This document shows positions 10,345 to 53,472 of a stretch of 64,000 nucleotides of DNA, in pieces (within the stretch, counting starts at the first letter, position 1; every line of letters starts with the position of its first letter). The stretch spans positions 1 to 64,000 of the forward strand of contig JBCCYL010000024.1 of NCBI GenBank assembly GCA_039189765.1. Reading direction: 5' to 3'. Source of the DNA: Cyanobacteria bacterium P01_F01_bin.150. Lineage in GTDB: Bacteria; Cyanobacteriota; Cyanobacteriia; CAKZMO01. The notes beneath the pieces were generated by a model that was given only the letters and a program-made list of their open reading frames with translations, searched no databases and was not told the origin of the DNA. The translations under genes were made by a program, and so were the position numbers.

Positions 10345-10527
10345 AACGATTTTGGATTTTAGATTTTGATGGAGGAGTTGGGGAGTTAGGGCGTTTAAGG
10401 AGTTAGGGCGTTTAAGGAGTTAGGGCGTTTAAGGAGTTAGGGCGTTTAGGGAGTTTAAGGAGTTGGGAGTTGGATAGTCTGCCTTCTGCCTTCTGCCTTC
10501 TGCCTTCTGCCTTTTTTCCTTCTGCCT
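10345..10527. repeat. STRR-like tandem repeat array: (TTTTGGA/TTTTAGA)n, (GGAGTTAGGGCGTTTAA)4, (TGCCTTC)6; fills entire cupA-cupS intergenic space
   Basis: Direct reading; 17-mer repeated 4x, heptamer TGCCTTC 6x, ends at cupA stop codon and begins 7 nt after cupS ATG. Confidence 0.9.
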
Positions 10528-28500: not shown

Positions 28501-28675
28501 GACGACGGTGACCACGATGATTGGGTTTACGCCGTTACTGCTGGATGCCACTGGATTTTGGCCACCGTTGGCGATCGCGATCGCTGGCGGATTGGGGGGA
28601 GCGACAGTATTGGCACTGTACTTTATTCCAGCCGCACACCTGCTGATTTATCGGTCTAAAGGAAAGCCACTTTGA
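25574..28675 (+). CDS. RND family efflux transporter permease (AcrB/AcrD/AcrF-like), 12-TM with two large periplasmic loops
   Basis: 1033 aa; characteristic motifs ..LGLLIDNAIVVVD.. and ..GLAINDSIVVL..; operon with adaptor. Confidence 0.85.
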   Translation: MVVTLARLDMFNLFFRNRQLLFLTLTLIIVWGLSAFLSLPRLEDPEIVQRSATVTTFFPGANAERVESLVTDKVEEELSDIEEVDEIISSSSPGISVVTVILKDTFSDVDPVFARVRSQIDDVIPELPPEASRPEYEDRKVKASAIIVGLTWDIDDPVNYSILRRVTEGLEAKLRNLPGTKRVELFGEPDEEIQVEISQADLLRLGISAQGLAQQIATSDAKVSTGELQGDAIELFFEVDSVLDSLDRIRAISIQVGADGQTAQLGDIAQVTKGIQTPVSDLALVAGKPAIVVAATVESDYRVDQWAQQAKKVLNDFEADLSDGLGIVIVLDQSRYVRQRLNGVISNLILSAILVLGISLVVLGWRSALIVGAALPLSILMVFGSMDMVDIPLHQISITGLIIALGLLIDNAIVVVDEVRVHLQDGSRPDEAVKETVKHLAIPLLASTLTTVLAFIPIAVLPGSTGEFIGPIGGTVILALLSSLALSLTVIAALAGLVYRWKPMPESSHKQHWSVGGWSNQRLSRLYQHSLRVVFRRPILGVLVAMVLPAIGFIQFSSLPQQFFPPTNRDQFQIELERPASSSIATTRTQTLAIRDRIRQHPAINDIHWFLGEDAPSFFYNLLSSRRNQSEYAQGIVQLDSTQHLRDTIQTLQTDLDAAFPDAQILVKQLEQGPPIDAPIEVSLYGPNLKQLRMLGERLRLILSQIDEVTHTRATLSELSPKLSLDVDEAAAKRVGLSNGAIAAQLNTLLNGQLGGSILEDTENIPVRVRLPDQERGDLSSIASVDLLSDHGTTVPFSAVASVQLRPEVSTIARRDGQRVNTVQGFITAGSLPSSVLAEFQQALAEQEFELPPGYRLSYGGEADARGSAVGNLLSTVGVLMVLMTATLVLSFNSFALAGLLAIVAIAAVGLAAMALWLFNSLFGFTAILGTLGLIGLAINDSIVVLAALQDDPLACKGDPIATQQVVIKATRHVVATTVTTMIGFTPLLLDATGFWPPLAIAIAGGLGGATVLALYFIPAAHLLIYRSKGKPL

Positions 28676-32724: not shown

Positions 32725-33564
32725 TTAGCCAAGCGCCTTAATACCGCGTAGCAGCATGTAGCTTGACAACCCTAAGAGTAATAAGCGAAAGAGAGTGGTA
32801 ATAGTCTTATCGGAAAGTTTGGGAAGAAGACGGGTGCCAAATTGAGCACCAATAATAGCGCCTCCCCCCAAACAGAGGCCAGGAATCCATAACACATGAC
32901 CACTGATGGACTGACGAATAAGCGCAGAAGACGCGATCGCCACAATTGCGCCTAAACTGGTGCGTACCGCGATTTTAATCGGCTCATTTAGAGCCAGCAT
33001 TTGCAATGGCACCATCACCGCCCCACCACCAACACCAAATAATCCCGATAGCATTCCCGCCAAAACGCCAATCCCCATCGTCGGTACAAATGGATAGCGC
33101 CTCTCCCGCTCAGTCCCACTTACAGCTTCTCCTTGCTCCCCTGCTCCCCCGCTCCCCTGCTCCCCTGCTCCCTTATGCCCCTGCTCCCTTACCAGCGATC
33201 GCTTCAACCCCATTAGATAAATAGTGGTCAACGCCAAGACAGCAAAGCCAATGGACAGAAAAGCATCAGGAATGCTGGCCCCCAACCACGATCCTACTTG
33301 AGCCGACATTAGACCAAAGCCGCCCAAAATTAAGGCCACTTTCCAATTTAAGGTCCCCGTTTGTAAATTGCGAATACTGCCAGAAAGACCGCTGAGTAAG
33401 ACCCCAATGAGGCTGGTGGCGGCAGCTTGAAGAGTAGTAGCGCCAGCTAAGGTTAGGGCTGGAACATTGAGTAAGCCACCACCAATGCCTAAAATACCAG
33501 CTAAGGTTCCAGTAAATAAGCCAAATCCAAATAGAAGAAACCAGCCTAACGGGGTATCAATCAT
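32725..33564 (-). CDS. TSUP (TauE/SafE) family anion exporter, with in-frame Gly/Glu-rich repeat insertion
   Basis: Two 4-TM halves with conserved ..GIGGGLL..P.L../..GVGGGAVMVPL.. motifs; central loop GAGEQGSGGAGEQGEA encoded by tandem ctcccctgctccc repeats (33111-33195). Confidence 0.75.
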   Translation of the reverse strand: MIDTPLGWFLLFGFGLFTGTLAGILGIGGGLLNVPALTLAGATTLQAAATSLIGVLLSGLSGSIRNLQTGTLNWKVALILGGFGLMSAQVGSWLGASIPDAFLSIGFAVLALTTIYLMGLKRSLVREQGHKGAGEQGSGGAGEQGEAVSGTERERRYPFVPTMGIGVLAGMLSGLFGVGGGAVMVPLQMLALNEPIKIAVRTSLGAIVAIASSALIRQSISGHVLWIPGLCLGGGAIIGAQFGTRLLPKLSDKTITTLFRLLLLGLSSYMLLRGIKALG

Positions 33565-34026
33565 TTGCGCTATTGCACCTAAAACGTCTGTCTTTACTCA
33601 ATTCATAAAAGCATAAAGGCGCTTACAACTTAAACAGACTTCATTTTAGGGCCAGTTTTTACTAGATTTTACGGATCGGAGCGATCGCAGCCTGTAAAGA
33701 GGCTAGAGGATTACGAAATTGTGCGGAAACAGAAAAGAACTTTGATGAAGATTTCAAGTACTTTTACTTAACCGTCATGGATGAGCGTTAGCTACCCTTT
33801 CGTACAAACTCTTATGGATACGAAGCAAAATCTCAGTGTATACACTATAATCTTTGGATAAGAGAGAGTAGTTCGGGTGCATGTAGTTAGAAGAAACGAC
33901 CTAAATTGGTACGCTAGTTCCAAAAAAGGTTCTGAAAACTGCTTAAGGTGTAGGGTTCCATCTAACTGTGTCGTTCCATAGCTAATAGAACTGTTGCATT
34001 CCCCTAGCGGGGCTTCCTTGAATTTC

Positions 34027-34236
34027 ATGACTGTTTTAACAAATGTGCGCCCACTTAAAGTGCGGTTAAGAGAAACTGTTGAACGGATTATCAAGTCAGG
34101 CTGTATTACACGAGCTGATGAAGACTTACTGTTCCATGCTGCAACCTCAGATCAAGTATTGACCCAAGAAGAAATGAAGCTGGTACAGCGGGTCTTCGAT
34201 CGTCTTCAGATGAATATGCTAAAGCTTTCAGACTAA
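34027..34236 (+). CDS. Small hypothetical protein (~70 aa)
   Basis: ORF in a 1-kb otherwise non-coding gap; no recognisable family; weak. Confidence 0.2.
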   Translation: MTVLTNVRPLKVRLRETVERIIKSGCITRADEDLLFHAATSDQVLTQEEMKLVQRVFDRLQMNMLKLSD

Positions 34237-34583
34237 GACCCCTAAATTAGAGAACGTTTGAGAAATCCGATCCTTTTAAGCGACGTTGCTAGGAAGTAAG
34301 TTACTAGTGGCTTAGACGGTTAAAAATCATCAATGTTCCCATTAAAAGCGTGGATTGGGTAAATCGCGTCTGCTGATTTTCTAATCGTTTACATTGTGAC
34401 TACAAGATTCGGATTTGTCTTAGCCATTTGAGTATGCTCAAGCCGAGTGATTTGAGATGGTGGCCATTGCTTCTGCTCATGGGTAGGAGTGCCAGGCTGA
34501 ACTTCTGAGAAATCATCTTTTTAATATTCGTCAACAAATACAATCCGGCAGGGATTCTCTCCTCATCTATGTATGACATGCAA

Positions 34584-34608
34584 GAGTGCTAGCACTCTAA
34601 GATTTTTT
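34584..34608 (+). terminator. Terminator-like perfect 16-bp palindrome agagtgctagcactct followed by T6 (plus-strand orientation), abutting stop of minus-strand permease gene
   Basis: Direct reading; could terminate an unannotated plus-strand transcript from 34240-34600 or act bidirectionally. Confidence 0.35.
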
Positions 34609-35389
34609 AGCTGGAAGCACTAGTGTAAAATCTGAGTGCAAAACGCCATATTTGTTTGGAAATCCATAAAAGTCCGAAGGACAACAGCAAGCTGATCAGA
34701 AACCATGATGACTCCAAGCGGTCGAGCAGGGCTTGAGCAGGAATCGTCGTTAGAAACGTGACTGGCACCACAAATGTGAAAAAGACTCGATAGGCCGCAG
34801 GGTAGGCAACAATCGGATATCGGCCTGCTTCTAGTAAGCCCCGCAGCACTTCAGTAACGTTATAGACTTTGACAAACCAAATACTGGTGGCACCCAGCAT
34901 AAACCAAAGACTATACAAACTCAGCGCACCACAAAATAGAGGCAGGATTCCTGTCACATAGTTAGCAATATTCAGGTTGAGCTGGTTGCCGGCATAACCA
35001 ATAATCAATAGCCCAAATAGAACATCTGGTAGTCCCCAGGGCGAGACAACTCGGGTTGATAGCCAAAACTGGGAGCTAACGGGCTTAAGCAAAACAAAGT
35101 CAAGGGTACCGTCTTGAACGTGACGAACAATCTTGCTCAAATTGGGGGATAAAAAAGTGGAAGAAAACCCCTGAAGAAGCGTAAACATTCCCAAAACAAC
35201 TAGAGCTTCTTCCCAGGACCAATCTTGGAAAGTATAGTCTGTTTGATAGAAAAGAAAAAGACCAAATATGCTGCCTACCAGCCCTGTTATGCTGCTGAGG
35301 GCGGCAATCAAAAAGTTGAGACGATACTCTAGCTCAGCAGCGATCGCGGTTCCCCAGAACAGTCTCAATACTCTAAAATAACGCAGCAT
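34607..35389 (-). CDS. ABC-2 family transporter permease (6 TM)
   Basis: 260 aa polytopic membrane protein with ABC-2 permease-like topology; weak motif support. Confidence 0.5.
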   Translation of the reverse strand: MLRYFRVLRLFWGTAIAAELEYRLNFLIAALSSITGLVGSIFGLFLFYQTDYTFQDWSWEEALVVLGMFTLLQGFSSTFLSPNLSKIVRHVQDGTLDFVLLKPVSSQFWLSTRVVSPWGLPDVLFGLLIIGYAGNQLNLNIANYVTGILPLFCGALSLYSLWFMLGATSIWFVKVYNVTEVLRGLLEAGRYPIVAYPAAYRVFFTFVVPVTFLTTIPAQALLDRLESSWFLISLLLSFGLLWISKQIWRFALRFYTSASS

Positions 35390-35406
35390 AATTCACCCTA
35401 AAGCAT

Positions 35407-35850
35407 TTACGATGAGGCGAACTCCAAAGCGTAATCACGAAACCGATTGAGATCCTCTTGGATAGTAGACTCCACCACACGTCCCAGGAACAGGTTATCC
35501 ATCAGAGCCAAAACCGGAGGAACATTATAGGAAACAGACAGACGTACGATGCTGCCATCCTCTCCTCGATCGTAGAATCGAATCGCTCCTCGATTCGGTA
35601 AGCCGCTGACTGACTCCCACCGAATGACTTGATGAGTAATAAGGTCGGTGATGCGCGATCGCCAGCTAAACTCAAATCCTGCGGACGCTAGCTTCCACAC
35701 CGATAGTTCAGGATCTTCCTCAAGTATTTTGACCGAATCAATCCAGCGCATCCAATTTGGCATTTGCTCCAAATCGGACCAAAGGGACCAAACAACCTCA
35801 ATAGGTATTTCAACTTCAACTTGCACGCTATGTTCGAGCCACTTGGCCAT
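35407..35850 (-). CDS. SRPBCC (polyketide cyclase/dehydrase, START-like) family protein; likely start MAKWLEHS (ORF track extends to 35910 via TTG)
   Basis: ..VEVEIPIEVVWSLWSDLEQMPNWMRWIDSVKILEED.. typical SRPBCC helix-grip N-terminus. Confidence 0.65.
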   Translation of the reverse strand: MAKWLEHSVQVEVEIPIEVVWSLWSDLEQMPNWMRWIDSVKILEEDPELSVWKLASAGFEFSWRSRITDLITHQVIRWESVSGLPNRGAIRFYDRGEDGSIVRLSVSYNVPPVLALMDNLFLGRVVESTIQEDLNRFRDYALEFASS

Positions 35851-35985
35851 AGTTGCCTTGCTCCTCCCTCGATACAAATGCATCGTCTGACGGGACTGAT
35901 TCCGTGTCAAGTATTCTCATGCTGAAGACAGTGAAACTTTACGCGGTCCCTTAACTCTTGGTCATAATAACGAAACCCATTTCCG

Positions 35986-37452
35986 CTAAGCTGCTGGCGA
36001 ACAGCAGCGGCAGCTTGACGCAAGCTGATCGAGCACAGCAGCGGCAGCTTGACGCCCAGAAAGGGTCGCCCCTTCCATGCTGTCAATGTAATCTTGCTGC
36101 GTGTAACTCCCTGCAAGAAAGAAGTTACTCACTGGAGTCTTCTGAGCAGGGCGATAGGGTTCCATTCCTGGGGCTTCCCGATAAAGAGACTGGGCCAGCT
36201 TAACAACGCTGTACCAGGTCATATTCAAATCGCGGGAAGAGGGGAACAGCTTACGGACCTGCTCAAGCACATGCTCAGCAATGACTTCTTTCCGCTCTTT
36301 AATAAACGGATCTCCCGGCGTCAACACTAATTGAAGCAGTGACCCCTCGCCTTCTTTGTAATAATCGGCAGGACTAGTGAGGGCTAAATCGGCAAAACAT
36401 GAGAAATCAGCATCAGGAGTGTAAAGCAGGTTGTCCAAGCCGGTGGCATGCTCAAGCTGAGTTCGCTCCGCATGATCCTGCATTTCCGTAACCCAACCAT
36501 CAAACCGTAGCTGCACCGTGACGACGGGAACCGCATCCAACTTGTAGAGGTTATCGAACTGCTCCCATTTACGCCAGCCCTCAGGCACTAAACGCTGGAT
36601 GCCGGGCACATCACAAGCACAAACATAGGCATCCGCTTTAACCGTACTAACGTCACTGCCTTGGGAGACTTCCAATCCTGTTACTTTAGTATTGTCCCCC
36701 TCACTCTCAAAATGCACCTCACGCACCTGGTTGCGCAGGTGAATCTTAACGTTGTGCTTCTCCAAATAATCCACAATTGGACGGTGCAAATATTCACCAG
36801 GCGACCCTTCCAACATCCGCAAAATGGACGCTTCTGTGCGAACGGCAAAGAATTGGAAGATGGTAAGCATACACCGGGCAGAAATATCTTCGGTGTCGAT
36901 AAACCCTAGGGCATAGGCAATGGGGTCCCACATCCGCTTTAAGCTGCCGTTGGACCCTCCATGACTGCGAAACCAGTCAGCAAAGCTAACGTTATCTAGG
37001 CCTCGAATGGTTTTCATTGCTCCATCGAAATCCACTAAGCCCCGCACGATGGGACTAGTGCCCAAGGCAAGGGAGTTAGACAGCTTGTCCTGGACCGAAA
37101 GTTGAGACGTGGTAAAAAAGGCTTTAAGACCATTAAAGGGCGCTCCGGTCAAGAAGCGAAAATCAAGCGCCCCTAAATCACCGCCCTCGTTGACAAAGGT
37201 GTGAGTATGCTCCTTAAGCCGCAGATCTTTGAAGGAGCCAACCTTTTTCATCAGCTCAAATAAATTGTAGTAGCAGCCGAAAAAGACATGCAGGCCCATT
37301 TCAATATGATTGCCGTCTTTGTCTACCCAACTGCCCACTTTGCCGCCAACAAAGGAACGAGACTCAAAAATTTCTACTTCATGACCCGCGTCTACCAGCT
37401 CCACTGCAGTGGACAATCCAGCTAACCCCGCGCCAACAATTGCGACCCGCAT
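35986..37452 (-). CDS. pds: 15-cis-phytoene desaturase (plant/cyanobacterial PDS type); C-terminus altered by a 34-bp tandem duplication
   Basis: FAD-binding N-terminus [19 protein letters not shown].., ..[33 protein letters not shown].. full-length PDS/CrtP family; see finding on 35990-36060. Confidence 0.9.
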
Positions 37453-37551
37453 GACCCAACCTTTCTAATGTGTCCTTAACACAGTGTAATATACATCTTC
37501 CCCACTGCCTGGAACAAATTGGTGCTCTATCCCGAACGTCCTTTGCCCACC

Positions 37552-38664
37552 CTAAGCTGGTACGTTATTTTCTGGCAGGTCTCTCATACTATCGCTGGGT
37601 AGCTTTGATTCATAGACTATAGATGTGTCCAGAAGACGCAGTTCTGAACAGCGCGATCGCCCATAATACTGCTGATACCAAGTCACAAACTGCTGAAGAC
37701 CATCTTCAAGCTTGGTTTTAGGCACAAAGCCAATGGCTTGATTTAGGGCATCCACATCCGCATAGGTTTCCAGCACATCACCAGGTTGTAGCGGCAGCAT
37801 ATTTTTTTGAGCGTTAACTCCAAGACAGCGTTCCAAGGTCTGGATAAAGTCCATAAGGGTAACAGGCTGATGATTCCCAATATTGTAGATACGGTAAGGC
37901 GCTTGGCTGGTGCTGGGATCGGGACAGTGGCCGGACCACAGACGATCAGCCTGGGGCGTATGGGGAAGCAGTCGCACAATCCCTTCCACAATATCGTCAA
38001 TATAGGTAAAGTCGCGACTCATATTGCCATAGTTGTACACATCAATGGGTCGGCCTTCTAGAATGGCCTGGGTAAATTTATAGGTCGCCATATCTGGTCG
38101 CCCCCAAGGACCGTAAACGGTAAAGAATCGCAGCCCCGTACTGGGGATGCAATAAAGATGGCTGTAAGCATGGGCCATCAGTTCATTAGCTTTTTTAGTC
38201 GCTGCATAGAGGCTGATGGGGTGATCCACATTATGCTGAACGGAAAAGGGGACAGCGCGATTGGCTCCATAGACCGAACTGGATGAGGCAAAGATCAAAT
38301 GTTTGACTTTATAGCTGCGGCATCCCTCCAAAACATGGAAAAATCCCACCAAATTACTGTCCGTATAGGCATGGGGATTGTCGAGGGAATAGCGTACTCC
38401 GGCTTGGGCGGCTAAGTGAATCACATCGTCAGGCTGATATTCGCCAAACAGCCACTCCATTGCTGCGCGATCGCTCAAGTCTATCTTATGGAACTGAAAA
38501 TTAGGATAGGGCTGAAGCTGAGCCAGGCGATCGCCCTTTAGCTGAACGCTGTAGTAATCATTGAGATTGTCCATCCCGATGACGGTATAACCATTATTCA
38601 ACAGTGCTTTGGCAACGTGATACCCAATAAAGCCAGCAGCACCAGTGACAAGAATCGTTGACAT
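37552..38664 (-). CDS. NAD-dependent UDP-glucuronate 4-epimerase-like (SDR extended family)
   Basis: ..ILVTGAAGFIGYHVAKAL...G..V.G.DNLNDYY....K..RL..L, catalytic YAATKKANELMAHAY; family typical of UDP-GlcA->UDP-GalA epimerases. Confidence 0.75.
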   Translation of the reverse strand: MSTILVTGAAGFIGYHVAKALLNNGYTVIGMDNLNDYYSVQLKGDRLAQLQPYPNFQFHKIDLSDRAAMEWLFGEYQPDDVIHLAAQAGVRYSLDNPHAYTDSNLVGFFHVLEGCRSYKVKHLIFASSSSVYGANRAVPFSVQHNVDHPISLYAATKKANELMAHAYSHLYCIPSTGLRFFTVYGPWGRPDMATYKFTQAILEGRPIDVYNYGNMSRDFTYIDDIVEGIVRLLPHTPQADRLWSGHCPDPSTSQAPYRIYNIGNHQPVTLMDFIQTLERCLGVNAQKNMLPLQPGDVLETYADVDALNQAIGFVPKTKLEDGLQQFVTWYQQYYGRSRCSELRLLDTSIVYESKLPSDSMRDLPENNVPA

Positions 38665-38676
38665 GGGTTCTAATCC

Positions 38677-40044
38677 TTAATAGTGGGTTAAATTCAACGC
38701 CTGTAAAACGGGGGGATGATCGCCTACCGGAAAATGTAGGACACTCAGTTTGCCGGGGGAGAGTGGCAGAGTGGGGGCCAAACCATGACGAAGACGAATG
38801 GTTTTAGCGATCAACGATTGCAGAGTGGGGATAGGGGCGATCGCCATTCCCGTAATCAGTCGCTTCTTGGCCGGATCGGTATGATTTTCCTGGTCTAAGG
38901 CCCGATGCCATTGACGGGCAAAGTCATGGCGTTGAACCTGGAGCTGCACCAGATTTGTACGGTCCTGAAATAGCTGCTGGGCGATCGCTTGGGCGACCGG
39001 ATCGGTTTGCGTCAGACTATAGGCCATCGGCATATCTGCCAGATGCTGGCGAATGGTAGTCGTTTGTTGCATTAACTGATCTGTCGCACGGTCTGACTGA
39101 GGAGCTACAGGGAGTAACAGTAGACGTAAGCCCTGTTTGCCTGCTTTAAGTTTGGGTAAGGGTTCCCCCAAGTGGCACGTGCAGTTCAAAACCCGCAGTT
39201 GGGCAGTGGATGTGGGCTGGGAATAGTCGAGGATACTAATGCCACCATTGGACTGTTGTAAACGGTGGTGAAATCGCGGCGAGAGTCCTAAGGCCGTGCT
39301 GATAAGGGCATGGTTGGTACCGCCATGGCTGACAACTAAGATGGTTTGACCAGGATGGTTGGGAAGAGTGGCTTGCCAAAAAGCTTGGGCTTGACGATAC
39401 AGCTCCAGAATCGGAAACGTCTTTTGCGGTTTAGGATGTAGCGCCTGTGTGGTCGTTTTGTCCAATCCTCTGGAGCTAGCAAATCCTCCGGGGCTAGATA
39501 ATCCTCTGGGGCTAGATAATGGAACGACAGACTGGCGGTCAAGATTCATCTGAAATTCGTGGGGCCGTTTGAGCCAGCATTGGTAGGCGATCGCCTCTTC
39601 ACTACGCACATCTTTGTAGCATCGCCCTTCCCACTGCGGCAGATTAATTTCCCGTAATCGTTCCGAAAAAATAGGTGCAGGCATTGGATATTGACTCGTT
39701 TTTGCCGCAATCCCTTCTGTCGTTTCACGGACCCGTTTTAGGGGACTAGCATACACTGCATCCACAGGAATAGAGGAAAGAATGGTGCCAACCCTATGGG
39801 CCTGCTGCCAGCCTTGGGCATTTAATACTGAATCATTGCTGCTGCCCTGGTATCGCTGTTGATCGTTGAAGGTGCTGCGGCCATGGCGGACTAGGATGAC
39901 ACGGGTGGTATAAGGGCCACAAGGGGGGAGATTAAACCAGTTACGGATATAACTAGTATTAGCCTTATCGTTGGTGGTTCTGGAGTCGGGCTGATTTGAG
40001 GAGATGTCGGTTAATGGTTGGCGTTGTTCAATAAGAGAGAGCAT
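38677..40044 (-). CDS. Histidine phosphatase (phosphoglycerate-mutase-like) family protein with in-frame repeat insertion; ORF track start 40143 overlaps ABC gene, likelier start MLSLIEQ
   Basis: RHG motif ..VILVRHGRSTFN.. and ..VVSHGGT..; tandem ggggctagataatcctct x2 at 39470-39520 encodes SSPRGLSSPGG. Confidence 0.6.
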   Translation of the reverse strand: MLSLIEQRQPLTDISSNQPDSRTTNDKANTSYIRNWFNLPPCGPYTTRVILVRHGRSTFNDQQRYQGSSNDSVLNAQGWQQAHRVGTILSSIPVDAVYASPLKRVRETTEGIAAKTSQYPMPAPIFSERLREINLPQWEGRCYKDVRSEEAIAYQCWLKRPHEFQMNLDRQSVVPLSSPRGLSSPGGFASSRGLDKTTTQALHPKPQKTFPILELYRQAQAFWQATLPNHPGQTILVVSHGGTNHALISTALGLSPRFHHRLQQSNGGISILDYSQPTSTAQLRVLNCTCHLGEPLPKLKAGKQGLRLLLLPVAPQSDRATDQLMQQTTTIRQHLADMPMAYSLTQTDPVAQAIAQQLFQDRTNLVQLQVQRHDFARQWHRALDQENHTDPAKKRLITGMAIAPIPTLQSLIAKTIRLRHGLAPTLPLSPGKLSVLHFPVGDHPPVLQALNLTHY

Positions 40045-41893
40045 AGGGTCGTTCTCCTTTTCGGGGTTGGGCGGGGGATGGGTTACCCATCTGTAGATGA
40101 TAGAGGTGGGCATACCGGGCGTTGAGTTGAAGCAGTTCATCATGACTTCCCTGTTCTAAAATGCGGCCCTGCTCGATATATAAAATATGGTCAGCCGTTT
40201 GAGCCGTATGGAGATTATGGGAAATCAAAAAGGTGGTTTTGCCCTGAACCAGTCGATTAAGGGCAGAGGTGACGAGGCGATCGCTTTCGTTATCTAACCC
40301 CGTGGTGGGTTCATCCAAAATCAGAATAGGAGCCTTACGGACCGCAGCGCGGGCAATGGCAATCCGCTGTCGCTGTCCCCCTGACAGGGTTGCCCCTCGT
40401 TCCCCCAAAACAGTGTCGTAGCCGTCTGGTAGCTGTAGGATAAAGTCATGGGCATTGGCCAGTTTAGCCGCTGTCTCAATATCGTCCTGGGTCGCAGTAA
40501 GACAGCCATAGGCAATATTCTCTCGGATGGTGGTGGCAAATAGCACGCTGTCCTGGAGCACAATACTAAAGCGCTGTCGCAGAGTGTCGAGGGTATAGTC
40601 TCGAATGTCCTGACCATCAATAAGAATCGCGCCATCGCTGGGGTCATAGAACCGCATCAGCAAACTGACCAGGGAGGACTTGCCACCACCAGACGGACCC
40701 ACCAACGCCACTTTTTGGCCCGGCATGATGTGAAAATTCAAGTCTTTCAGGGTGCCGTGGTGTTCGTCATAGCCAAAGTAAACAGCCTGGAATTGGATGG
40801 CACCTTGAAAGGATGGGGTGGGTTGGGCATGGGGGCGATCGCTTATTTTGGGCACCGTATCAAGAATATCTAAAATCCGTTCACCCGAAGCCGTCGCCTT
40901 GGCAATTTGTCCCGTGTACTTCGCCAGTTGGCGCATGGGCTTAAAGGCCACTTTTAGATAGGTGGTGAACACCAGCAGGTCGCCTGCGGTCAAGGCTCCC
41001 TGAAGCACTAATTGAACGCCGCGCCAGAGGACAAGGGCAGTGGCGATCGCCACTAACACTTCCACTAGACGTTCTTGGCCTGCCCTTAGCTTTTGGGCCT
41101 GGGCACTTTCCCTAAGGCTTTTACGATTCTGACGGCTAAAGCTCCGTTCCAGCATGTCCTGAAGCCCAAGTGCTTTTACCACTTTGATGGCACCAATCGA
41201 CTCAGCAACTGAGGCGGCCATGGCTCCCTCTCGTTTACGCTGACGTCGGGCCACGTCTCGAATTTTGCGGGTCATTTTTACAGTGGACAGGGCAAACAGC
41301 GGCAGGACCAACAGGGCAATCATCGCTAGTTCCCAATTTAGCCACAGCATTACGCCCAACATACCCACTAGGGTCAGCCAATTGGTGAGTAATGGCAGCA
41401 CGGCCACAACGGTGACTTCTCGCAGCCGCTCAATATCGTAAGTAACACGGGTAATCAAATCCCCACTTTTATGCTGGTGATGAAAGCTAAGAGACAGCCG
41501 CTGAATATGGCTAAAAAGCTGGCCACGAATCGCGGTCATAATATGGGTTGCGGCAACGGCCATCCCGACGGTGCTAAAGTAGGCCGCTCCTCCTCGTAAA
41601 CTAGAAACCCCGACCAGGGAAAGGGTAAGTACGGTCAATAAACTCAAGGGATGGAGGCCAAAGGTATCCGGGGATGCAGTCAAATCAGTTCCAGCAGAAA
41701 AGCCAGGAAGAATGACGCGATCGAACATAAATTTCAGGGGCCACGGCTCCAGGAGTCGCATCGCAGTTTCCAGCAGCAACGCCAGAAACGACAGAGATAA
41801 GAGTCGTTTTTCTTTAACAATCTGGGGCTGAAACTGCCGCAGAATTCGACCAATACCTGGAATGGATTTTTTCAATGATTGATGACTGGGCAT
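40028..41893 (-). CDS. ABC exporter, fused TMD-NBD (MsbA/type I exporter-like)
   Basis: 6-TM N-terminal domain; Walker A GPSGGGKSS, signature LSGGQRQRIAIARA, Walker B ILILDEPT. Confidence 0.85.
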   Translation of the reverse strand: MPSHQSLKKSIPGIGRILRQFQPQIVKEKRLLSLSFLALLLETAMRLLEPWPLKFMFDRVILPGFSAGTDLTASPDTFGLHPLSLLTVLTLSLVGVSSLRGGAAYFSTVGMAVAATHIMTAIRGQLFSHIQRLSLSFHHQHKSGDLITRVTYDIERLREVTVVAVLPLLTNWLTLVGMLGVMLWLNWELAMIALLVLPLFALSTVKMTRKIRDVARRQRKREGAMAASVAESIGAIKVVKALGLQDMLERSFSRQNRKSLRESAQAQKLRAGQERLVEVLVAIATALVLWRGVQLVLQGALTAGDLLVFTTYLKVAFKPMRQLAKYTGQIAKATASGERILDILDTVPKISDRPHAQPTPSFQGAIQFQAVYFGYDEHHGTLKDLNFHIMPGQKVALVGPSGGGKSSLVSLLMRFYDPSDGAILIDGQDIRDYTLDTLRQRFSIVLQDSVLFATTIRENIAYGCLTATQDDIETAAKLANAHDFILQLPDGYDTVLGERGATLSGGQRQRIAIARAAVRKAPILILDEPTTGLDNESDRLVTSALNRLVQGKTTFLISHNLHTAQTADHILYIEQGRILEQGSHDELLQLNARYAHLYHLQMGNPSPAQPRKGERPYALSY

Positions 41894-52041: not shown

Positions 52042-53472
52042 CTAAACTTTTTTGAATCGTTCTTTTGCCGCTTGAAACGCTTCAGTCATCGCCTGTTGAA
52101 TGCGATCGGGATCGGGCTTTTTTCCTCCCATTACATCCCCAAAGTACACACAAGCGCCTTCACCCAACGCCCAAGTGTAGGCTGCGGCCCACGATGCTGC
52201 AACTACGCTGCCAAAGCCAGGAATAAACTTAATCAGTTCTCGACCGATGGCCTGGGCTAGAAATCCACCGGCGATCGCGCTTACAATTCCCCCCGCCTGG
52301 GACGTCGAAATTTTCTGACCGTAGAGCTTACCCAACAGTCCCACCATCGACACCTGGAGCGCCGTCAAAACGGGCATAGTTGCAAAGGGCAGCGGCACTG
52401 CCGCCAAGGTGGCCGCCATTGTTGCAAAAGCCAACATATAACGACGTCCCACTTCCCGATATACGGACCCCAACTGCTCATTAGCCTGCTTACTTGCATC
52501 AGCATCCAATAGTTGACGAATCGTTCGCGCCTCCGCCTCTGGTAACAGCTCCGCCAGCGTATCCCGCAGCGCTTCCAATCCATAAAATACAGGACTATAC
52601 CCATCCTCCTCCAGAGTAAAATCAATCAATATTGCCCGATCCCAAAGGCCATCAAATGCCTCTTTCACAGATTCAAAGGCACGATTGACGTCTTCCATCA
52701 TTGGAGGGTAGTCGGGATGATTTTCAACGTCACTGGCATACAGCTCATGGACACAAGTAACCACCAGAAGACAGGGAATAGCTGGAGAACCCATCGACTC
52801 TGCGCCCTGGAAATATCGTACCTGCTTCACAATGTCCCTTAACGACGCAACGGCAAAATCATTAATCTTCACCGTCAAAATCAGCACCCTCGCCTGCTGC
52901 TTCTCTTTCACCCCACCCTCTAAATTTACATCAGCAAGACCAGAGTTATTGTCCGTCTGAACAACGGTGTTGGGTTTCCTACCGTCAACCCAACCTACGC
53001 CCTCATTCTTCCTCCCCAACGCCCCAACTCCCCAACTCCCCAACTCCTCAACTCCCCAACCCTCTACCAACTCCTCCACCCAACTTTCCGTATCCTGAGC
53101 TACATCCCCCAACCCAACTGTGTCCGTAAAAATAAGCAGAGGAAGCTCTGCGGAAGGATAGGCATACCGCTCCGTATTCTGAGTATGGGGCCGAAACCCC
53201 TGACCAACGATGTCCGCAGATACGCCAGTCAGCCCTCGAACGATAGAGCTTTTACCAGCCTGGGGTTTACCAATTAAGATGGCTTCTGTAGTGGGTAACT
53301 GTCCTCGTAGGCTCTCTAAAATTTCAGCAATCTGTTTATCGTCCACATCTAGCCACCGTGAGGATTTTCGTGCTAGCCAGGCAGATAGTTCTTTAGGAAA
53401 AGATGCAGGATTGAGCTTTTCAAGATTTAGGTGCTTTAGGTATTGGGACGTTTGCTGCCAGAAGTCGGTCAT
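52042..53472 (-). CDS. P-loop GTPase with C-terminal DUF697 membrane-associated domain (YcjF/YfjD-like), carrying in-frame STRR-like repeat insertion
   Basis: G1 GKPQAGKSSIVRGLTG, G3 ..FTDTVGLGD..; C-terminal hydrophobic DUF697-like region; (CCCCAACT)n repeat at 53014-53075 encodes WGVEELGSWGVGALG. Confidence 0.65.
   Translation of the reverse strand: MTDFWQQTSQYLKHLNLEKLNPASFPKELSAWLARKSSRWLDVDDKQIAEILESLRGQLPTTEAILIGKPQAGKSSIVRGLTGVSADIVGQGFRPHTQNTERYAYPSAELPLLIFTDTVGLGDVAQDTESWVEELVEGWGVEELGSWGVGALGRKNEGVGWVDGRKPNTVVQTDNNSGLADVNLEGGVKEKQQARVLILTVKINDFAVASLRDIVKQVRYFQGAESMGSPAIPCLLVVTCVHELYASDVENHPDYPPMMEDVNRAFESVKEAFDGLWDRAILIDFTLEEDGYSPVFYGLEALRDTLAELLPEAEARTIRQLLDADASKQANEQLGSVYREVGRRYMLAFATMAATLAAVPLPFATMPVLTALQVSMVGLLGKLYGQKISTSQAGGIVSAIAGGFLAQAIGRELIKFIPGFGSVVAASWAAAYTWALGEGACVYFGDVMGGKKPDPDRIQQAMTEAFQAAKERFKKV

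Follow-up and report, generated by a model that had tools for sequence, protein, structure and literature searches.

A probably harmless 34-bp tandem duplication in the 3′ tail of a cyanobacterial zeta-carotene desaturase gene

The zeta-carotene desaturase gene (zds) of Cyanobacteria bacterium P01_F01_bin.150 ends in two adjacent copies of a 34-nt unit, the second of which is read in a frame shifted by one base. We regard this as probably a genuine 34-bp tandem duplication in the 3′ tail of zds, one that leaves the enzyme intact and the downstream SRPBCC gene untouched and that is most likely neutral. It would be an ordinary 3′-end duplication, tolerated and probably harmless, and the finding is of little biological weight. 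All coordinates refer to the window, the whole 64-kb stretch of DNA that was analysed.

Identity of the gene

The gene and the two repeat units are laid out as follows.

35986..37452, minus strand: zds/crtQ, 9,9′-di-cis-zeta-carotene desaturase, 488 aa, TIGR02732, identical to NCBI MEM9214818.1
36022..36055, minus strand: repeat unit 1, GCGTCAAGCTGCCGCTGCTGTGCTCGATCAGCTT, in the native frame; encodes the last part of the conserved C-terminal helix (..GRQAA.A[IV]L.. at the end of homologues)
35988..36021, minus strand: repeat unit 2, GCGTCAAGCTGCCGCTGCTGTTCGCCAGCAGCTT, read one base out of register, giving 11 residues

An earlier note on this DNA had called the gene phytoene desaturase (pds), a misnaming that is corrected here to zds. 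Residues 2–474 of the product match TIGR02732, the zeta-carotene desaturase equivalog, over profile positions 1–474 of 474 and with 906.5 bits (cutoff 622.15), whereas TIGR02731, the phytoene desaturase profile, yields 307 bits, well below its cutoff of 569.4. NCBI records the identical protein of 488 aa as ‘MAG: 9,9′-di-cis-zeta-carotene desaturase [Cyanobacteria bacterium P01_F01_bin.150]’; because this record is a MAG protein, the source is a metagenome-assembled genome (MAG). Among close relatives in the database, all those with a name are 9,9′-di-cis-zeta-carotene desaturases.

As with other ZDS of the cyanobacterial and plant type (CrtQ), the match to the equivalog profile is full-length and far above the cutoff, with 78–92% identity to annotated cyanobacterial ZDS, and a zds–SRPBCC–ABC2 permease neighbourhood is common to the window and its relatives. 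Only the last 11 residues set the window protein apart, and they are encoded by a second copy of the RQAAAAV(L)xQL codons, read out of register. The phytoene desaturases (PDS, CrtP), represented by the rice structure 5MOG, are paralogous desaturases with the same FAD-dependent amine-oxidase fold; 5MOG aligns with residues 2–476 (E 5e-72) and has the C-terminal SMEGA.LSG..A helix in common with the window protein, but the window protein falls well short of the PDS profile cutoff.

The tandem repeat

The two units follow each other head to tail on the minus strand with no spacer, 36022–36055 and then 35988–36021. They are identical at 30 of 34 positions, and the first 21 nt match exactly. The earlier description of an imperfect 34-nt tandem duplication (34 mod 3 = 1) is borne out, with the last 11 codons lying in a frame other than the single-unit frame, and its range of 35986–36069 is the repeat itself (35988–36055) plus a few flanking bases. 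Both translations given there are also right, namely the 488-aa frame with its stop TAG at 35986–35988 and the open reading frame at 35907..36116 on the minus strand. The zds stop codon is formed by the last two bases of unit 2 and the next A.

A repeat search returned a tandem duplication of two copies of 34 nt, at a spacing of 34 and with 88% identity. The 64 kb of the window contain exactly two copies of the 21-mer shared by the units, also with three mismatches permitted; it is absent from 100 dinucleotide-preserving shuffles, and 0 occurrences are expected by chance. A custom scan of the 64 kb for adjacent copies (periods of 12–120 scanned, those of at least 20 kept, identity at least 85%) found three repeats in total, compared with none in each of 10 shuffles. 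TRF missed the 34-nt repeat when run on the window, even at a minimum score of 30. The sequence is single-copy in all 86 related loci.

Conserved enzyme and variable tail

The match to TIGR02732 stops at L474, and the alignment to 5MOG, the only solved relative, stops at residue 476. The junction between the units falls just after L477, and the shifted frame runs from residue 478. Because both alignments end at 474–476 and the shift begins at 478, no conserved ZDS residue is lost, and the enzyme, as judged from these alignments, is not truncated. The contention that the duplication truncates the desaturase does not hold, with the profile covered at 474 of 474 positions, unit 1 intact and in frame, and a length of 488 aa that lies inside the 476–493 aa of full-length close homologues (two outliers have 520 and 612 aa). 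Neither the loss of conserved residues nor that of a domain, which would mark a truncated or pseudogenised enzyme, is seen.

Tails after the conserved Leu were compared in 88 rows, comprising 86 related loci and the window itself twice. They range from 2 to 20 residues (median 11) and are unrelated in sequence, with examples among the relatives such as EQ, ESLKK, ENAEQLKAVAV and HWNETTQRDDVKPTKEAVSL, each directly followed by the stop. The window tail, 14 residues by this count, is of unremarkable length. The closest relatives end in VLNQFS (in the relative with 92% identity), VLQQLSPSTVAAASVG, VLQQFNSTPPAPAVAGAQ and ILQQFAAKTTATPVS, again directly before the stop, and these ends are rich in Ala, Ser, Pro and Thr. 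The 11 shifted residues of the window are made up of Ala, Ser, Cys and Pro and are Cys-rich (CRCC), a composition not unlike that of the closest relatives’ tails; no other ZDS among the homologues and related loci compared carries such an 11-residue tail. The earlier note had proposed an alignment of C-termini from related cyanobacteria as a way to identify the ancestral tail; the tails of the relatives are unrelated in sequence, and neither the window tail nor the tail of the single-unit frame is present in any of them.

Since the tail region is free to vary, with 2–20 unrelated residues, the change is most likely neutral; for the Cys-rich tail (CRCC) itself, neutrality is assumed. The case suggests that cyanobacterial ZDS can have its C-terminal tail replaced arbitrarily, and in scans of this kind a frameshifting repeat at a 3′ end is best judged against the point where the conserved region of the family stops.

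Two other zds sequences in public data carry duplications of different kinds. A ZDS homologue of 612 aa among JGI metagenome proteins (P0007) has an in-frame internal tandem duplication of about 134 residues (HQPIVDYIRARGG...FSCFADL, present twice) and is a further duplication-bearing zds allele. In the MAG MFD02581.bin.2.179 (locus L020), two near-identical zds 3′ ends with tails ENANNFVMRSPVTTA and ENADNFVMRSPVTTA lie 3.8 kb apart on one contig, at ~3280 and ~7124; this pair may stem from duplication of the whole gene or be an assembly repeat.

Assembly and conspecific comparison

An artefact of assembly or strain mixture, in which a gene with one real unit was lengthened either by the joining of two co-occurring alleles of the last helix (..VLDQL and ..V[L/R]QQL) or by a chimeric path through the reads, is an improbable source of the repeat, although it has more in its favour than the readings taken up further below. 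The source is a MAG, the sequence is found in one sample with no second sample, and the units differ just where relatives vary (VLNQF, VLQQL, ILQQF), with the differences clustered. Weighing against it is contig SRR22824305_56247 from Logan, a separate pipeline, which encodes the exact 488-aa protein and reproduces window positions 33143..40452 (locus L081), a stretch of 7310 bp that contains the duplication, with 0 mismatches, although this contig probably comes from the MAG’s own sequencing run and so tests the assembler and not the sample. The alternative of an assembly artefact, raised in the earlier note, appears unlikely because this second assembly of SRR22824305 repeats the duplication exactly. 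Logan uses a short-k de Bruijn assembler, in which allelic variants form a bubble and not a tandem array, so the junction between CAGCTT and GCGTCAAG must exist in the reads. Furthermore, the version of the helix in unit 2 puts Arg in place of a Leu kept by nearly all homologues and is therefore unlikely to be a natural allele. The four sites at which the units differ also argue against a fresh or trivial duplication artefact from one template.

The window contains 73 copies of HIP1 (GCGATCGC), compared with 0.66 expected, which confirms a HIP1-rich cyanobacterial genome. The repeat had been described as a HIP1-rich site, and it is not: the nearest copies are at 35655 and 37653, and no exact octamer lies at or next to the repeat or within 330 nt of it.

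We found no conspecific genome among the GTDB representative genomes, where the best match has 84% identity, and no conspecific protein in a collection of 5.8 billion clusters, where the best match has 92% identity and the 90% cluster contains no more than 2 members. In JGI metagenomes, a degenerate DNA pattern for zds (19 residues plus [VI]) yielded no conspecific gene; it hit 3 loci, all distant and all single-copy. With no conspecific genome found, the state before the duplication is not directly readable.

The single-unit frame and the downstream SRPBCC gene

Beyond the repeat, the frame that a single-unit gene would follow remains open for a short distance, ahead of the SRPBCC gene and its putative ribosome-binding site.

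35907..35987, minus strand: tail frame of the single-unit gene, 26 residues; as the sequence stands, the first part of the 135-nt spacer between zds and the SRPBCC gene
35861..35870, minus strand: Shine–Dalgarno-like GAGGGAGGAG (GGAGG box), ending 10 nt upstream of the SRPBCC ATG, proposed from sequence only
35407..35850, minus strand: SRPBCC/Polyketide_cyc gene, 147 aa, ATG at 35850 (MAKWLEHSVQVEV); PF03364 1.4e-20, PF10604 1.9e-13

Developed from the earlier note, one reading has the ancestral protein run through this frame to a TGA at 35907; the duplication would then have shortened and altered it and broken its translational coupling to the SRPBCC gene, at a physiological cost. This reading is largely refuted, and we give it very little credence. 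What speaks for it is that the frame is open for 26 codons, that its TGA overlaps a TTG, and that the AGC (Ser) codon directly after the repeat fits the ..QFS and ..QLS ends of the nearest relatives; the nearest relative then stops (AGC TAG).

The tail itself fits poorly with such an ancestry. Deleting either unit would give a 503-aa protein with a 29-residue tail, beyond the maximum of 20 among the 88 rows. A search of the 5.8-billion-cluster collection with the single-unit C-terminus returned no protein that carries this tail, the matches covering the conserved half only, and a Pfam search of the 69-aa open reading frame (35907..36116) gave no match. The segment has a GC content of 0.42 and a GC3 of 0.41, which looks intergenic, compared with 0.51 and 0.54 for zds, and at the local base composition a 26-codon frame is open by chance with a probability of ~0.2. 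Without a homologue, with its low GC3, its chance openness and its over-long tail, the open reading frame is weak evidence for a lost coding extension, and its tail is not demonstrably ancestral. A programmed frameshift from one frame to the other was considered and dropped: the single-unit frame needs a +1/−2 shift, and no slippery motif is evident.

Loss of coupling between zds and the SRPBCC gene, the second part of the claim, rests on a TTG at 35910 that is the mere opener of the longest open reading frame. The conserved N-terminus M-x-x-WLEHSVQVEV follows zds in 72 of the 88 rows (70 related loci and the window twice) and corresponds in the window to the ATG at 35850; the gene calls of both Logan and NCBI likewise give a product of 147 aa. 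The single-unit frame had been said to end immediately before the SRPBCC gene, and its stop is in fact 56 nt upstream of this ATG. Across these 72 rows the distance from the zds stop to the SRPBCC start is 3–341 nt (median 68), with no overlap of stop and start in any of the 70 related loci. Both the 135 nt in the window and the 56 nt that one unit would leave are ordinary, and no upstream stop overlaps or abuts the genuine downstream start, as translational coupling would have it. As the gene has its own ATG at 35850, its own Shine–Dalgarno-like box and a 135-nt spacing well inside the 3–341-nt range, we do not expect the choice of zds stop to affect its expression. A ‘coupled’ downstream start is thus better judged by the N-termini of orthologues than by the longest open reading frame.

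The SRPBCC gene with its M..WLEHSVQVEV start is found at this distance after zds across many cyanobacterial orders, and the order zds–SRPBCC (Polyketide_cyc)–ABC2_membrane_6 permease is kept in the closest relatives (window 34607–37452, minus strand; loci L001–L087). Synechocystis slr0941 is presumably the orthologue of the SRPBCC gene beside zds. The cyanoglobule proteome lists slr0941 as ‘Lipid binding/START domain like’ (PMC12223511). The pairing of zds with the SRPBCC gene suggests a functional link to carotenoid handling and is a more interesting biological lead than the duplication. Further upstream on the same strand, at 38677–40143, lies a His_Phos_1 (phosphoglycerate-mutase-like) gene, whose longest open reading frame has 488 aa compared with 455 aa in the Logan gene call; its N-terminal 33 residues are probably not translated.

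Divergence of the units and origin of the duplication

The units differ at unit positions 22, 24, 26 and 28, which correspond to window positions 36000, 35998, 35996 and 35994. Under uniform placement, four differences within 7 nt have a probability of ~0.012, and such clustering is not predicted by simple drift after duplication. The end of zds in the nearest relative, GTT CTC AAT CAA TTC AGC TAG, serves as the reference for the changes. Set against it, unit 1 keeps CTC and the xAT codon and suggests a synonymous change GTT>GTG, while unit 2 keeps GTT and suggests the changes CTC>CGC, synonymous in the new frame (TCT>TCG), and GAT>CAG. The non-identical copies are compatible with an allele of some persistence. 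Third codon positions of zds are only 0.51 identical to those of the relative with 92% identity, so the duplication would be much younger than the split from that relative.

Unit 2 also contains an inverted repeat, which the DNA fold shows as a 7-bp stem.

35990..36008: perfect 7-bp inverted repeat GCTGCTG–5 nt–CAGCAGC (TTCGC loop), inside unit 2

Differences 26 and 28 create this perfect stem (GCTGCTG...GATCAGC before), and the corresponding stem in unit 1 is only 4 bp long. One template switch of the quasi-palindrome (Ripley) type would yield such a perfect inverted repeat. The resemblance lies in the two changes that complete an imperfect inverted repeat to GCTGCTG/CAGCAGC; such an event does not account for differences 22 and 24, which sit in the loop, and the link is suggestive only. 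The fold of the whole 96-nt region, with a z-score of −1.98, is not exceptionally stable. The hairpin in unit 2, after which the sequence continues with TTAGCGGAAA, does not form an intrinsic terminator, and 35700–36200 contains 0 terminator-like sites.

Short tandem duplications that arise by replication slippage or unequal exchange can leave frameshifted, tolerated C-terminal tails. The zds repeat resembles them, as generally known, in its head-to-tail arrangement with no spacer, a unit not divisible by three and a site tolerant of change; it differs in that the copies are non-identical, with four clustered differences, and the mechanism here is a presumed one. The only flanking microhomology at the 34-nt unit is an unconvincing GCG, shifted by one base.

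The sequence of events that we favour is the following. The lineage of Cyanobacteria bacterium P01_F01_bin.150 would have gained a 34-bp tandem duplication at the 3′ end of zds, presumably by replication slippage or unequal exchange. Unit 1 would have stayed in frame, keeping all conserved residues up to the last helix, and unit 2, one base off register, would have supplied the 11-residue Ala/Ser/Cys/Pro tail and the TAG in place of an earlier short tail. The copies would later have diverged, possibly including one quasi-palindrome template switch that made GCTGCTG/CAGCAGC perfect. With the tail free to vary in cyanobacterial ZDS, the enzyme would have remained functional and the change most likely neutral.

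An adaptive duplication, in which the Cys-rich tail (CRCC) or the unit-2 hairpin is functional, for example in membrane or lipid-droplet anchoring, in redox sensing or as an RNA element that sets the zds:SRPBCC ratio, seems very unlikely: the divergence of the copies, which may point to an allele of some age, the two differences that create the perfect 7-bp stem and the listing of slr0941 among cyanoglobule proteins would agree with it, but no other ZDS has such a tail, the fold z-score is modest and comes with no terminator-like site, and a single MAG gives no selection signal. Retention of the out-of-frame copy for the sake of a new Cys-rich ZDS tail (membrane or lipid-droplet association, redox) or of a hairpin that tunes SRPBCC expression is slightly less probable still; if true, it would be a de novo birth of a tail by frameshifted self-duplication.

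Other repeats in the window

At 10381–10448, four head-to-tail copies of the 17-nt unit GGAGTTAGGGCGTTTAA form the only other long mixed-sequence tandem repeat in the window. An imperfect array of 8-nt units of the CTCCCCAA type spans 53012–53059 and was found at a period of 24. Two HIP1 copies overlap at 28571 and 28577 (28571–28584).
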